Shown in pieces: positions 58,636 to 63,524 of a stretch of DNA of 64,000 nt. This stretch comes from an uncultured Psychroserpens sp. (GTDB taxonomy: Bacteria > Bacteroidota > Bacteroidia > Flavobacteriales > Flavobacteriaceae), in the NCBI GenBank assembly GCA_947489585.1, contig CANLEE010000001.1, forward strand, positions 364,946 through 428,945. Reading direction: 5' to 3'. The translations under genes were made by a program, and so were the position numbers. The notes beneath the pieces were generated by a model. The model searched no databases, was not told where the DNA came from, and was given only the letters and a program-made list of their open reading frames with translations. Numbering within the stretch: the stretch's first letter is position 1; the number at the start of each line of letters is the position of its first letter.

Positions 58636-59184
58636 ATGAATTTGGAATCAGAAAACAATAAAAAACTTAAGGATTTTTTCTCAAGAGAATACCACGCTCT
58701 TAAGGGTTATGTGAATTCCAAAATAAATGATACTGCTAGTCGTGATGCTGAAGACATAATTCAAGATGTTGCTCTAAAATTATTCTCTGGAGCAGATAGA
58801 TATGCACCTATAAATAATGTGGCTGGCTTTGTTTATAGGTCAATTAAAAACAAAATAATTGATGTCATGAGAACTTCTAAACCAACGAGTTCTATTGACG
58901 CAGATTATAATTTATTAGAATTTGTAGAGGTCATCCAGCAAACAACTGAAAATTATACATCAGATAAAATGATTTCAATATTAAAAGACTGTATACAACA
59001 ACTAAAGCCGCCATATAGAGATATCATAATTGCCATAGATTTTGAAGGGTACTCTTATAAAGAAATCTCAAATGAAACAGGAATCCCAGAAGGCACTCTA
59101 ATGTCTAGAAGGCATAGAGCTATAGGGATATTATATAATAAAATAGAATTAAAAATTAATGAACATAAAATAGATATATCATGA
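58636..59184 (+). CDS. ECF RNA polymerase sigma factor
   Basis: DAEDIIQDVAL, NKIIDVMR, YSYKEISNETGIPEGTLMSRRHRA. Confidence 0.92.
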   Translation: MNLESENNKKLKDFFSREYHALKGYVNSKINDTASRDAEDIIQDVALKLFSGADRYAPINNVAGFVYRSIKNKIIDVMRTSKPTSSIDADYNLLEFVEVIQQTTENYTSDKMISILKDCIQQLKPPYRDIIIAIDFEGYSYKEISNETGIPEGTLMSRRHRAIGILYNKIELKINEHKIDIS

Positions 59185-59600
59185 CAAATTTTTTCACTCA
59201 TAAATTCAGAAAAAAATCACCAATTGAAATTGTAGGAATAATCATTTTTGGTGTCATTGCCATTACAGGGTTAGCCATTTTATTTGGCTTTGTAATCATG
59301 TGGCTATGGAATTGGCTTATGCCAGATATTTTTGGATTAACAACACTCACGTATTGGCAAGCTGTTGGTCTATTCATACTACTCAAATTACTCCTTGGAG
59401 GCTGTGGAAGCGGAAGTAAAAAATCATCAAAAAAATCAAACGATGCTTGTAAAAAAGATTCAAAAACAGATTTTTCTAAATGGAAACACTATGACAAGTT
59501 TTGGAAAGAAGAAGGCGATGAATATTATAAGCAATATGTCGAAAAACAAACAAAGCCTCTTGAAAATGAAATATCAAAAATCGATTCAGAAGAACTTTAA
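59181..59600 (+). CDS. Small membrane protein coupled to the ECF sigma
   Basis: Two TM segments, WLWNWLMP-IFGL and YWQAVGL motifs; ATGA overlap with the sigma gene. Confidence 0.7.
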   Translation: MTNFFTHKFRKKSPIEIVGIIIFGVIAITGLAILFGFVIMWLWNWLMPDIFGLTTLTYWQAVGLFILLKLLLGGCGSGSKKSSKKSNDACKKDSKTDFSKWKHYDKFWKEEGDEYYKQYVEKQTKPLENEISKIDSEEL

Positions 59601-59608
59601 ATCTCAAT

Positions 59609-59827
59609 ATGGAGCTGCTATTATTTCGAACAGATATTAAATCAAAGAAAAAAGTGAAATCTATAAAATCAATATTTAATGATCATATAGATATTTTAAA
59701 TTGGTCAATAGACCTTGAAGATATTGATAATGTGCTTAGAATTGAAGCCACTAAAAGCTTGTCTGAACAAGATGTTTTAGACTTGGTAAAAGCTCAAGGA
59801 TTTTATATTGAGGTCTTATCAGATTAA
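59609..59827 (+). CDS. Small HMA/ferredoxin-like fold protein without CxxC
   Basis: FRTDI...WSIDLEDIDNVLRIE pattern; 72 aa; last gene of the cassette. Confidence 0.6.
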   Translation: MELLLFRTDIKSKKKVKSIKSIFNDHIDILNWSIDLEDIDNVLRIEATKSLSEQDVLDLVKAQGFYIEVLSD

Positions 59828-59837
59828 AAACACGTCG

Positions 59838-60716
59838 CTACAACATCTGCAATGTATTTACCTCTTGTTGTGTCAAATGTTTCCAATGACCACGAGGTAA
59901 ATCCTTTTTTGTTAAATGCGCTATTTGAACACAATCAACTCGAATAATATCATATTTAAAGTAATCAAAAATAGTATGCAAAATGGTGTTTCCTGTGTTC
60001 TTGATTTTAAGACCAATTTTGTTTTTTGACTCACCTTCAATATAACTTATTTCCTCAACGGCAACTAGCTTTCCTTCAGTTTTAAAACCGTCTTGAATTT
60101 TCTTAAAATCATCATATTTCAAATTTTTATCCAATTCAATTTCAAATAAACGAGAGACACCACTCTTAGAATTCGTGAATTTCTTCACAACCGTATCATC
60201 ATTAGTAAACAATAATAATCCTGTAGAATTTCGACCTAAACGACCTATAGGTTTAATACGTGCATTACTAGCATTAGCAACCAAATCCATAACAGTGCGT
60301 CCTTTACTTTCGCTAGTTGTTGTTGCAAACCCTTTAGGCTTGTTCAACAACACATATTCTTTTTTCTCAGGATTAATTCGAGCACCATCAAAACGTACAT
60401 CATCCTCTAACTTAACTTTGTAACCCATTTCAGTAACAACTTTTCCGTTTACGGTTACACTGCCTACTGAAATATGCATATCAGCATCTCTACGTGAGCA
60501 AATCCCAGAATTTGCAATATATTTATTTAAGCGAATCTCATCTGGATTAGATGGTTTAGCTGTTGAAGGTGTTCTTTTTTTTACTGGCGCATTTCCGCGT
60601 GTAAATTTTTTGCCTTTAGCATTATCTCCTCCTCTTCCTGATTGCTTATTGGTAGGCTTATTTTGTCCTCTGCCTGAAGATTTCCCCTTTCCACTACGTC
60701 CTTGCTGTCTGCTCAT
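59838..60716 (-). CDS. rluB: RluB/RsuA-family pseudouridine synthase homolog lacking the catalytic Asp
   Basis: S4 domain (RLNKYIANSGICSRRDAD), LLNKPKG, but GRLGRNSTGLLLFTND in place of GRLD. Confidence 0.88.
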   Translation of the reverse strand: MSRQQGRSGKGKSSGRGQNKPTNKQSGRGGDNAKGKKFTRGNAPVKKRTPSTAKPSNPDEIRLNKYIANSGICSRRDADMHISVGSVTVNGKVVTEMGYKVKLEDDVRFDGARINPEKKEYVLLNKPKGFATTTSESKGRTVMDLVANASNARIKPIGRLGRNSTGLLLFTNDDTVVKKFTNSKSGVSRLFEIELDKNLKYDDFKKIQDGFKTEGKLVAVEEISYIEGESKNKIGLKIKNTGNTILHTIFDYFKYDIIRVDCVQIAHLTKKDLPRGHWKHLTQQEVNTLQML

Positions 60717-60733
60717 GATGACTAAATTTTGCG

Positions 60734-60741
60734 CAAAGGTA
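60734..60741 (-). promoter_or_regulatory. Bacteroidota -7 promoter box for rluB
   Basis: TACCTTTG on the minus strand, 17 nt before the ATG. Confidence 0.65.
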
Positions 60742-60755
60742 GTATATTAGTTGAA

Positions 60756-61706
60756 CTAATCTACAAATTTAATAGTAGATTGACGTTCTCGATTAACAGA
60801 TAACTGTGTGACGTCTGGCCTTGAATAGTGACCAACAGGATCAAAATTTTGTCGCTCTTCTAAAACACGATTAAAATCTATAGTTTGATAAATTAAACCT
60901 TCTTTGTGCAATACAGGTTCTACAACCCACTCGCCATCAGGTCCTGCAATGCAACTTCCGCCATTAGCAAGAATTTTAGGTGCGTTTTCTAAAATACGGT
61001 CTAAGTTAGGTGTATCCTCTGGAAAGTCTTCTGTAGTCATTAAACTCGATACCGAAATCACATAGGATCGTGATTCTCTTGCAATAAAACGCGTGATATC
61101 TTTTGTGTTATGATCACTTCCTGGCCATACTGCAATGTGCAAGTTTTCACCTAAACCATAGAGAGCCGCTCTTGGTAAAGGCATCCAGTTCTCCCAGCAA
61201 TTCAATCCTCCTACTGTAAAATCTTTAAGTGGATGTACTTGCAATCCGTTTCCATCTCCTGGAGCCCAAGTGAGGCGCTCATCATAAGTAGGTTGCAATT
61301 TTCGATGAACCGATTCAATACTTCCGTTTTGATTAATATACACTAGAGAAGCATAAACACTATGACCTCCACGATCTTCTGGGCGTTCTATGATTCCTAA
61401 ATAAATAGACATCTTATGCTGATTGGCTAATTCACAAATGGTGTCTAAATCGCCTTTTTCTATTGTAATCGAATTTTTCACATAATGTGCATGCAACTCT
61501 TTATTGACTTGAGTATTCCACTCAGCACCTCCAGTTAATGCCAGCCAAAACGGATAACCAGGCACAAGCCCTTCTCCAAAAACTATAAGCTCAGCTTGTT
61601 CTTTTGAAGCTTCAACTATTGCATTTTCTACTTTTTGAAGTGTTTCTAATTTATTCAACCAAACTGGCGATATTTGAGCTAAAGCAACTTTAAGTGTATG
61701 ATTCAT
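60756..61706 (-). CDS. Nitrilase (carbon-nitrogen hydrolase)
   Basis: Glu-Lys-Cys triad in FGEGLVPGYP, HRKLQPT, GGLNCWEN; FDPVGHYSRPD. Confidence 0.92.
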   Translation of the reverse strand: MNHTLKVALAQISPVWLNKLETLQKVENAIVEASKEQAELIVFGEGLVPGYPFWLALTGGAEWNTQVNKELHAHYVKNSITIEKGDLDTICELANQHKMSIYLGIIERPEDRGGHSVYASLVYINQNGSIESVHRKLQPTYDERLTWAPGDGNGLQVHPLKDFTVGGLNCWENWMPLPRAALYGLGENLHIAVWPGSDHNTKDITRFIARESRSYVISVSSLMTTEDFPEDTPNLDRILENAPKILANGGSCIAGPDGEWVVEPVLHKEGLIYQTIDFNRVLEERQNFDPVGHYSRPDVTQLSVNRERQSTIKFVD

Positions 61707-62617
61707 TAGATACGATTTAAAACAACATTGACATTAATTAAAACGATACAAAACACGCCTGCTACAATGATAAATTTCAAAATGTTATGTAGTATTAAAT
61801 AGTGTGTTTTCGTTTTCGATTTCCACAGTAATAGTAGAAAAATAAGAAGTAACATTACAGAGAGGTAGAAAAATAAATACATATGACCTACATCATAACG
61901 ATTGAGCAGTAAATACACTGGAATACTTGTTAAGAGTATTAAAACCGTCAGCATTATTTTTGAGGCTTTTTCGCCATAAACTATAGGTATAGTTTTATAA
62001 TTAAGTAATAAATCGCCTTTCATGTTTTCCAAATCTTTGGTCAATTCACGCATTGAAATCATTAAAAATAAGAATACTGCATGTACAAAAATGACCGACT
62101 CAAAATTTTTATAATAAAGGAAAATGGCAAAGAATGGTAAAATCGTGAGTATCGCAGATGTTAGGTTTCCAATAAACGGAAGCTTCTTGAGCTTATGTGA
62201 ATAAAACCATATTCCGAAGATATAAACCGAGAAAAACAATACTGCGTTAAATGACACATAACTCGCCATCACTACTGCTGAAAAATTAAGTACAAAGTAA
62301 AACGAGAGCTTAGTGTTTTGGCTCACCAATCGATCTAACTTTGATTTATTAGGTCGATTGATTAAATCTTTTTCAGAATCATAGAAATTATTGATAATAT
62401 AACCAGCAGCAATTGTTGCAGCAGATGCCAAAACTAATAGCAATAAATTTAAATCAAATAGTACTTGTTTGAGTGGTTTATCATGTGCTAAAATATAAAC
62501 TGATGTCAAATATTGTGCAATAACAACGATAAGAATATTATAACCACGAACGACAGAAAACATACTAAAGAATTTTAGTAGGATATGTTTTTGTTTTCTG
62601 GAAAAGATAGAATTCAC
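61706..62617 (-). CDS. UbiA-family prenyltransferase (DGGGP-synthase-like)
   Basis: GYIINNFYDSEKDLINRP, RELTKDLEN-KGD, multiple TM helices. Start uncertain; in-frame GTG at 62617 chosen. Confidence 0.82.
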   Translation of the reverse strand: MNSIFSRKQKHILLKFFSMFSVVRGYNILIVVIAQYLTSVYILAHDKPLKQVLFDLNLLLLVLASAATIAAGYIINNFYDSEKDLINRPNKSKLDRLVSQNTKLSFYFVLNFSAVVMASYVSFNAVLFFSVYIFGIWFYSHKLKKLPFIGNLTSAILTILPFFAIFLYYKNFESVIFVHAVFLFLMISMRELTKDLENMKGDLLLNYKTIPIVYGEKASKIMLTVLILLTSIPVYLLLNRYDVGHMYLFFYLSVMLLLIFLLLLWKSKTKTHYLILHNILKFIIVAGVFCIVLINVNVVLNRI

Positions 62618-62618
62618 G

Positions 62619-63524
62619 TTATGGCTTTGATTGTTTAATTCTTTTAGCAATTTCTAAAGATAATCTATTTGCAGATTCAGGTATCATATGATGGGCATCA
62701 AAATAATTAAAGACATCGCCTTGAGTCGAAAAATTAAAATAGTGAACGCTCATTTCATTTGACATATGCTCTAATACATCATCAAAATTAGACATTAATT
62801 TGTTTTCAACTTCTAGCAAATCTAAATCAATAGGAAGTCGTATTAAATAGACCTCACCATAAGTCTTTAAATACGAAATAGTTTGTTTAAGGTATGCCAG
62901 TCTTAAGCTAGAAAACTGATACGCTTCTTGTTTAACGGTATAACGAGCAATAAGTTCTTTTTTCTGCTTTAAAATGTATTTATCAGACAATTGTAAACTG
63001 GAGCTCCATGAACCATCATCTTCTACAAAAAGAGGGGATCTATTATATAAGATTTTGATATACGGTTCTGAATAATTATGAATTAAGTAGTTAAAATTAG
63101 GATGAGAGTTAACTGTTGTAATGGTTCCTAAGAAATTTTTATTTTCCAAAAACATATTCAAATCATTAGGATCTTGACTATCATTTGATAAGACCCAAGG
63201 ATCAACACCAAGAATGAAAACTTGATTTTCAACTGTTGTATCTAGTTTTTGCTTGACACTATTTAAATAAGTGAGACCATAAGGGCTCGTATTGTATGTA
63301 AATGCATAATTAAAACTCTGAATATTTCCTAACTCTTTATCTATAATTGAAGGCTTTATCGCATACCCAATTCTTGATGACCCTAGAATTAAAGACGATT
63401 GTTTAGCTGAGCTAATTTTTTTATAAAATGGATCTGATTTACCATCGGCCATATAGAACACACCAGCTATGCTAGATAAAATAACTAAGGCAAATACTAC
63501 TATTTTTATCAAAAATATTTTCAA
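62619..63524 (-). CDS. SGNH/AlgJ-DltD-like partner of the MBOAT protein
   Basis: N-terminal anchor, LILGSSR (GDSL-like Ser block), YFDAHHM (DxxH); directly downstream of the MBOAT gene. Confidence 0.6.
   Translation of the reverse strand: MKIFLIKIVVFALVILSSIAGVFYMADGKSDPFYKKISSAKQSSLILGSSRIGYAIKPSIIDKELGNIQSFNYAFTYNTSPYGLTYLNSVKQKLDTTVENQVFILGVDPWVLSNDSQDPNDLNMFLENKNFLGTITTVNSHPNFNYLIHNYSEPYIKILYNRSPLFVEDDGSWSSSLQLSDKYILKQKKELIARYTVKQEAYQFSSLRLAYLKQTISYLKTYGEVYLIRLPIDLDLLEVENKLMSNFDDVLEHMSNEMSVHYFNFSTQGDVFNYFDAHHMIPESANRLSLEIAKRIKQSKP

Follow-up and report, generated by a model that had tools for sequence, protein, structure and literature searches.

The gene described here lies in a 64,000-nt window (the whole stretch of DNA that was analysed) on contig CANLEE010000001.1 of the genome of an uncultured Psychroserpens sp. 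(GCA_947489585.1). The open reading frame at positions 59838-60716 is on the minus strand, as are all of its features given below, and encodes 292 amino acids plus a stop codon, in which an S4 domain is followed by an RsuA-family pseudouridine-synthase-like domain that has no catalytic Asp. The N-terminal tail (residues 1-58; 60543-60716) is rich in Gly, Lys, Ser, and Arg, with 16 Lys and Arg residues vs. a single Asp or Glu. It is predicted to be disordered based on this composition and on pLDDT, which is about 40 for residues 1-56 of an AlphaFold model. The S4 RNA-binding domain (residues 62-107; 60396-60533) was identified by Pfam PF01479 with an E-value of 4e-10 and a score of 39.6 bits (cut-off 22.8), and is modeled with a pLDDT of about 87. 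Thus, a sequence-only reading of this DNA was correct in describing the S4 domain and the reading frame as intact.

The remainder of the protein is a domain with the pseudouridine synthase fold (residues 121-290; 59847-60356), recognized by PF00849, by structure alignment, and by Foldseek. PF00849 (PseudoU_synth_2) matches the N-terminal half of this domain (residues 121-196) with 47.7 bits (cut-off 26.8). HMMER comparison with solved structures aligned residues 60-290 with Escherichia coli RluF (3DH3, E 2e-28), RluB (4LAB and 9CL9), and RsuA (1KSK), and the best Foldseek matches for the predicted model are RluF, RsuA, and RluB (E 1e-16 to 1e-18). The AlphaFold model was built from a shallow alignment of 44 sequences and has a mean pLDDT of 68.9, which makes it good for the fold and not for pocket geometry: the S4 domain is confident and the synthase fold is recognizable, and the motif II loop (residues 161-165) has a pLDDT below 50. 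Based on its domains and its fold, the product of this open reading frame is a homologue of the RsuA/RluB/RluF family.

Upstream of the gene are a nitrilase-family gene (60756-61706) and a UbiA-family prenyltransferase gene (61706-62650). The UbiA-family gene is the conserved upstream neighbor in 39 of the 58 relatives for which flanking sequence is available, including relatives that retain the Asp. The nitrilase-family gene, which here separates the UbiA-family gene from the synthase homologue, is present in only eight of the 58. Three genes located directly downstream (58636-59827) encode an ECF-type sigma factor, a small membrane protein, and a 72-aa protein. No counterpart of these three was found beside the gene in any of the 58 relatives, a distribution that fits an insertion at the 3' end of the gene. 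The housekeeping promoter that the sequence-only reading had described as intact was not recovered, as a sigma-70 scan revealed no -35/-10 pair upstream on the minus strand. The only box found upstream is TAAATTTG (60764-60771), a possible Bacteroidota-type -7 box in the final part of the nitrilase-family open reading frame, 48 nt from the ATG. It fits the Bacteroidota -7 consensus, TAnnTTTG, and is not accompanied by a clear -33 TTG. The 39-nt gap between the nitrilase stop codon and the ATG also contains a perfect 10-nt palindrome, TTTGCGCAAA (60728-60737), 11 nt before the start codon.

Several residues of the active site are replaced. In the alignment to RluF and RluB, Gly161 (GGT, 60234-60236) occupies the position of the catalytic Asp (Asp110 of RluB); residues 156-166 read PIGRLGRNSTG where the motif II consensus is P(I/V)GRLD. 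Structure alignment places R189-L190-F191 (60144-60152) at the K-x-Y motif, with Phe191 (TTT, 60144-60146) at the position of RluB Tyr140. Both replacements are exactly those noted from the letters alone, where motif II had been read as GRLGRNS and the downstream K/R-x-Y motif as RLF. Motif III is also degenerate. It reads KNTGNTILHTIF (59967-60002), compared to HSGRNRIVRRIF in the aligned intact orthologues, and the equivalents of RluB Arg192, Arg194, and Arg197 are Gly242, Thr244, and His247. Finally, Cys262 (TGT, 59931-59933) replaces an Arg that is conserved in the family (RluB Arg212, within LDRV in intact orthologues). Thus, the protein differs from RluB in that the equivalents of Asp110, Tyr140, Arg192, Arg194, and Arg212 are all replaced. 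In contrast, Arg159 (60240-60242), which by alignment is the equivalent of RluB Arg108, is kept. Both Cys262 and Arg159 are invariant in the clade described below.

The importance of these positions is known from characterized enzymes. Mutation of the Asp inactivates TruA, TruB, RluA, and RsuA, and the Y140F mutant of RluB has about 3% of its activity left; Arg194 and Asp110 have been named as conserved substrate-binding residues of RluB, the base-flipping role belongs to Arg108, and the R108A mutant retains 0.6% activity (PMC3919597). The protein is a homologue of an enzyme family from which residues essential for catalysis are missing, including both the active-site Tyr and the motif III Arg (Phe191, and Gly242 and Thr244), as is characteristic of pseudoenzymes. 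Judging from these replacements, it should be unable to work as a canonical pseudouridine synthase. We considered a substitute acidic residue, the Asp or Glu that follows a TND motif in the clade (Gly in intact forms), and rejected it because the strand topology described for RluB (PMC3919597) would place it too far from the pocket.

The name "RluB homolog", given in the sequence-only reading, is appropriate at the level of the family (S4 domain, PF00849, and fold), but not for RluB proper, as no equivalog cut-off is reached. The protein scores 77.1 bits with the NCBIfam subfamily model TIGR00093 (cut-off 109.3; intact orthologues 145-160 bits), 69.6 bits with the RluB equivalog NF007976 (cut-off 290; intact orthologues 125-147 bits), and 125.7 bits with the RluF equivalog NF007784 (cut-off 318). 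Neither the dead protein nor its intact orthologues reach the NCBIfam equivalog cut-offs for RluB, RluF, or RsuA. Assignment of the RNA target by these models was abandoned, since no cut-off is reached and the RluF, RluB, and RsuA scores are similar. In RluB, the specificity loop comprises residues 131-138, and the conserved Glu135 holds the A2602 bulge (PMC3919597). The corresponding loop here is T-N-S-K-S-G-V-S-R and has no such Glu. In intact orthologues the loop is H-P-K-x-G-(V/I)-R-K; here Gly takes the place of Glu135, and the His-Pro that RluB has at residues 131-132 is present.

Similarities to E. coli RluB (the 23S rRNA Ψ2605 synthase; 4LAB, 4LGT, and 9CL9) and RluF (the 23S rRNA Ψ2604 synthase; 3DH3) include the combination of the S4 domain with the RsuA-family fold and the base-flipping Arg of the G-R-L motif. 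Differences from both are the scores, which fall far under the two equivalog cut-offs, and the presence of a separate, true RluF in the genome. The basic low-complexity tail is a further similarity to RluB, although it is N-terminal in this protein and C-terminal in RluB.

We then examined how widely the replacements are distributed. In a collection of 5.8 billion proteins, the 120 nearest homologues, which are 74-100% identical, all show GRLG together with R(L/I)F. Psychroserpens, Bizionia, Formosa, Lacinutrix, Gelidibacter, Mariniflexile, and Oceanihabitans are among the genera named in this set. A survey of the source family, Flavobacteriaceae, with one genome per genus for 150 genera, yielded a match in 150 of the 151 genomes searched, and 130 of the surveyed genes were retrieved and aligned. 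Within this alignment, 56 sequences (from 56 of the 150 sampled genera) constitute one group, here the G/F/C clade. Every member of the clade has Gly161, Phe191, and Cys262, and position 244 is occupied by Thr or Ser, more rarely by Gly. Winogradskyella, Leeuwenhoekiella, Altibacter, Luteirhabdus, Pukyongia, and Gilvibacter are among the genera with this dead form. The codons for Gly161 in the 56 clade members are GGA (21), GGT (18), GGC (9), and GGG (8). All four GGN codons are in use, indicating that the glycine was held while its codon drifted.

No internal stop codons were found in matches from the G/F/C clade. The dN/dS ratio is 0.018-0.068 in the pairs with measurable dS, which are only 10 of 37 pairs because dS is saturated in most comparisons between genera; for the window gene and its congener, dN is 0.038 and dS is 1.32, a ratio of 0.028. 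Across the clade, the folded core is 77-85% identical to that of the window protein, and RluF is 74-85% identical in the same genomes. By this measure, the dead form evolves no faster than its active paralog. The low dN/dS, the open frames in 56 genera, and the synonymous turnover at Gly161 are all signs of purifying selection on a pseudoenzyme. Thus, the residues were lost long ago, their loss has become fixed, and purifying selection on the protein is strong. A clade-wide Asp-to-Gly change and dN/dS had both been listed as checks in the sequence-only reading; the change was found in the 56 sampled genera as well as in the 120 nearest homologues, and dN/dS was low.

Between the 56 dead sequences and a set of 30 family members that are canonical throughout, only five sites are fixed differently: 161 (Asp to Gly), 189 (Lys to Arg), 191 (Tyr to Phe), 239 (His to Lys), and 262 (Arg to Cys). 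Residue 244 also differs between the two sets (Arg to Thr or Ser). All of these sites, including residue 244, fall in active-site motifs, and thus the rest of the surface is unchanged. Common to both forms are the S4 domain, motif I (LLNKPKG), the base-flipping Arg, and a C-terminal TKKDLPRGxW motif. Within the S4 domain, the columns R62 L63 N64, S74 R75 R76, and A78 D79 are invariant in dead and intact orthologues alike.

Beyond the clade, the GRLD motif is kept in 146 of the best 150 representatives of 50%-identity clusters (40-56% identity). These representatives also have K-x-Y, GRNRIVRRIF, and LDRV, and most are Bacteroidota proteins of 300-700 aa with N-terminal extensions much longer than the tail described here. 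The Asp is likewise kept in a phylum-wide sample of genomes from outside the family, with one Asp-to-Glu exception. As GRLD occurs nearly throughout outside the family, the Asp is the ancestral state. The intact form is found within the family in Muricauda/Flagellimonas, Tenacibaculum, Polaribacter, Capnocytophaga, and Zeaxanthinibacter, and outside it in Chryseobacterium, Elizabethkingia, and Draconibacterium.

In a maximum-likelihood tree, the 56 G/F/C sequences cluster together (SH-aLRT 98), and the stem of this group is 0.3 substitutions per site long. A quick tree search split this group when the four active-site motifs were removed. On the same motif-free alignment, the tree in which the group stays intact surpasses that of the free search by 76 lnL units (p-AU 0.955). 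Since the grouped tree is better even without the motif columns, a single origin of the G/F/C clade is the best reading of these sequences.

Other lineages of the family have Glu, Gln, Ser, Asn, or His in place of the Asp, or Gly in other contexts (GKMGK, GKLGT, and GDMGR). Several lineages, including Flavobacterium, Maribacter, Christiangramia, and Mesonia, retain the Asp and have a degenerate motif III. Counted as a parsimony minimum on the gene tree, which comes from quick searches and includes several long branches from small genomes, there are 12 changes between Asp and non-Asp on the full tree, at least six of them forced by well-supported branches. Without the motif columns there are 13 changes, at least seven of them forced. 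Some family members with small genomes (1.6-2.2 Mb; loci L126-L131) have orthologues that are 35-43% identical, are placed on long branches, and have no Asp (GDMGR and similar motifs). In four further small genomes even the best match is weak (E 1e-25 to 1e-30) and scores about the same as the RluF paralog, and the orthologue may be absent or too divergent. The search of one 1.4-Mb genome returned no match.

The Psychroserpens genome encodes five PF00849 proteins: a RluD-like, a RluA/TruC-like, and a RluE-like protein, RluF, and the product of the window gene. The catalytic Asp is present in the other four. RluF (contig C13, 112894-113658; locus L003) scores 324.2 bits, above its equivalog cut-off of 318, and is the kind of second, active paralog that the sequence-only reading had suggested looking for. 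It is unlinked to the window gene, which is on contig C1. No second, Asp-containing copy of the window gene's orthologue was found in the genome. The specificity loop of this RluF is RASNNHEKEY, compared to RAGNDHEKEY in E. coli RluF, and the Asp at that loop position is conserved in RluFs (PMC3919597). Judging from the sequence, the Asn that replaces it could affect which helix-93 uridine is modified by this RluF.

The 23S rRNA gene of the genome (contig C22) carries AGAACGTCGTGAGACAGTTCGGTC. This sequence is identical to helix 93 of E. coli and includes the uridines at 2604 and 2605. A possible substrate is thus still present, and the idea that the target uridines had disappeared was rejected. 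Among the sampled genomes, RluF is present in 76 of the 77 that have an Asp-less orthologue, and the sole exception is only 80% complete. Conversely, all 17 genomes that have the orthologue and no RluF keep the Asp, the Tyr, and both Arg. The association of Asp loss with RluF presence has a Fisher p of 1.8e-7 if kinship is ignored, whereas an independent-pairs test, with at most two informative pairs, gives a median p of 1. The association is thus a lead and not a result, and may reflect shared ancestry alone.

We propose that the gene is an orthologue of the Bacteroidota rRNA pseudouridine synthases of the RsuA/RluB/RluF family, and that the catalytic Asp, the active-site Tyr, and three conserved Arg were probably lost in the common ancestor of a large marine clade of Flavobacteriaceae. 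Members of this clade include Psychroserpens, Winogradskyella, Bizionia, Formosa, Lacinutrix, Gelidibacter, and Leeuwenhoekiella. The S4 domain, the base-flipping Arg, the fold, and the basic, disordered N-terminal tail would have been kept after the loss. The protein is thus probably a pseudoenzyme that is maintained by selection and is non-catalytic yet still able to bind RNA. The lost residues, the clade-wide change, and the strong purifying selection agree with the sequence-only reading, which had proposed a retained pseudoenzyme and no normal pseudouridine synthase.

Since only catalytic residues have changed, the RNA of the intact orthologues is probably still recognized. The protein would dock on the RNA element that its active orthologues modify, without isomerizing the uridine. 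This element probably belongs to 23S rRNA, with helix 93 as the expected site in the case of an RluB-like family. The target base may still be flipped out by Arg159 and left unconverted. In this position the protein could serve as an RNA-binding helper, a placeholder, or a chaperone, most plausibly on pre-50S particles, and the true RluF of the same genome may supply a pseudouridine that is still needed in the helix-93 region.

A specific role in 50S assembly, which is suggested by analogy and had been proposed, next to that of an RNA chaperone, in the sequence-only reading, is a serious candidate that we place slightly short of an even chance. The title of PDB entry 9CL9 names a 50S intermediate to which RluB is bound, RluB accumulates on pre-50S particles that have stalled (PMC11912913), and RlmB and RlmL continue to promote 50S assembly when catalytically dead (PMC11194073). 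On the other hand, re-expression of RluB in the E. coli delta-10 strain gave no gain in growth or in ribosome profiles (PMC11194073), and thus an assembly role is not established for the closest characterized enzyme.

A non-catalytic function in RNA binding outside ribosome biogenesis, on tRNA, mRNA, or small RNA or in translation quality control, is unlikely. Some other S4-domain proteins act in translation quality control. The signs of RNA binding (the S4 domain, the basic tail, and the base-flipping Arg) are generic, the intact orthologues match no equivalog model, and the synteny with the UbiA-family gene gives no ribosomal hint. However, every characterized S4-containing member of the RsuA family (RsuA, RluB, and RluF) acts on rRNA according to database descriptions, and the restriction of the differences from intact orthologues to catalytic sites argues for an unchanged binding partner.

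We also assign a low probability to a function with or against RluF, in which the protein would be a non-catalytic partner that presents helix 93, or a competitor that shields the neighboring uridine and sets the modified position. RluB and RluF bind the same stem-loop and pick adjacent uridines (PMC3919597). Human RPUSD3, whose catalytic position is occupied by Gly, belongs to a module with RPUSD4 and TRUB2 and is believed to assist other synthases. The co-occurrence counts (76 of 77 and 17 of 17 genomes) are also in line with a connection to RluF, but the association is not significant in the independent-pairs test and the two genes are unlinked.

That the protein is still an enzyme, capable of Asp-independent pseudouridine formation or of new chemistry on the flipped base (for example, via Cys262), is highly improbable. 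We know of no Asp-independent pseudouridine synthase. The invariance of Gly161, Phe191, and Cys262 in 56 genera is unlike pure relaxation, and the base-flipping Arg159 is kept. However, Asp mutants of four synthase families are inactive (PMC3919597), and here four more conserved active-site residues were lost together with the Asp. In other lineages of the family, six different residues (Glu, Gln, Ser, Asn, His, and Gly) take the place of the Asp and the Cys is absent, which looks like repeated loss and not like a new active site. The invariant Cys262 and Gly161 could nevertheless indicate that the protein has come under a constraint of another kind, for instance from different chemistry or an additional partner, and not mere retention of RNA binding. 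Although GGT and GAT differ by a single base, a sequencing or assembly error and a decaying pseudogene are both refuted, as 120 of 120 nearest homologues, which come from independent assemblies, and 56 genera share these residues, the Gly161 codon has turned over synonymously, dN/dS is 0.02-0.07, and the frames are open throughout; the sequence-only reading had also argued against an error.

Dead homologues of pseudouridine synthases are already known from organelles. Human RPUSD3 is considered inactive, yet is needed for the function of mitochondrial 16S rRNA (PMC12710931; bioRxiv 2023.02.23.529727). Like the retained pseudoenzyme proposed here, it has Gly at the position of the catalytic Asp. 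It differs in being a eukaryotic, organellar protein of the RluA family in which the whole HRLD motif is lost (RASG), whereas GRL and the base-flipping Arg are kept in the Psychroserpens protein. Trypanosoma brucei mt-LAF3 also has the pseudouridine synthase fold and is found in large-subunit assembly intermediates. The essential function of mt-LAF3 is independent of the catalytic Asp, as the D211A mutant complements (bioRxiv 2023.02.23.529727). This mitochondrial RluA-family protein has the opposite pattern, with the Asp kept and the base-flipping Arg absent. In E. coli, the engineered dead variants RlmB E198A and RlmL N309A stimulate 50S assembly, and the window protein would be a naturally fixed version of such variants. 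In contrast, RlmB and RlmL are methyltransferases with intact wild-type activity, and RluB showed no detectable rescue in the same study (PMC11194073).

Literature searches returned no description of a bacterial RsuA-family pseudoenzyme, or of this protein in Flavobacterium, Flavobacteriaceae, or Bacteroidetes. Homologues are named "pseudouridine synthase" or "23S rRNA pseudouridine2605 synthase" in public records. These names are probably wrong regarding activity, and they are unproven regarding the site.

A long-standing question is whether bacteria retain their rRNA pseudouridine synthases because of the modification or because of the protein as such. Single knockouts of these enzymes have almost no phenotype, and engineered dead mutants differ from one enzyme to another. 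The family described here may represent a naturally evolved answer, with a protein that is under strong selection over many genera after its chemistry was apparently lost, and a loss that recurs in sister lineages. The dead and intact orthologues provide matched pairs of species for pseudouridine mapping, ribosome profiling, and complementation. A broader proposal, which we regard as speculative and on balance somewhat unlikely, is that the main selected function of the long-tailed RluB-like family of Bacteroidota is non-catalytic (rRNA binding or chaperoning in large-subunit assembly) and that the pseudouridine is a dispensable extra. If so, Flavobacteriaceae would constitute a natural experiment in which the Asp was dropped at least six to seven times (12-13 times by parsimony) and the protein was kept each time. 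The losses seen so far are in RluF-bearing genomes, with the one exception of the genome that is 80% complete.

Flavobacterium-type copies of the gene (GRMDKNTTG, with SNVKVVR or SNPKHVR) were also found on contigs of metagenome-assembled genomes labeled Bifidobacterium breve and Pseudanabaena sp. (L203 and L234). These contigs are most likely mis-binned.
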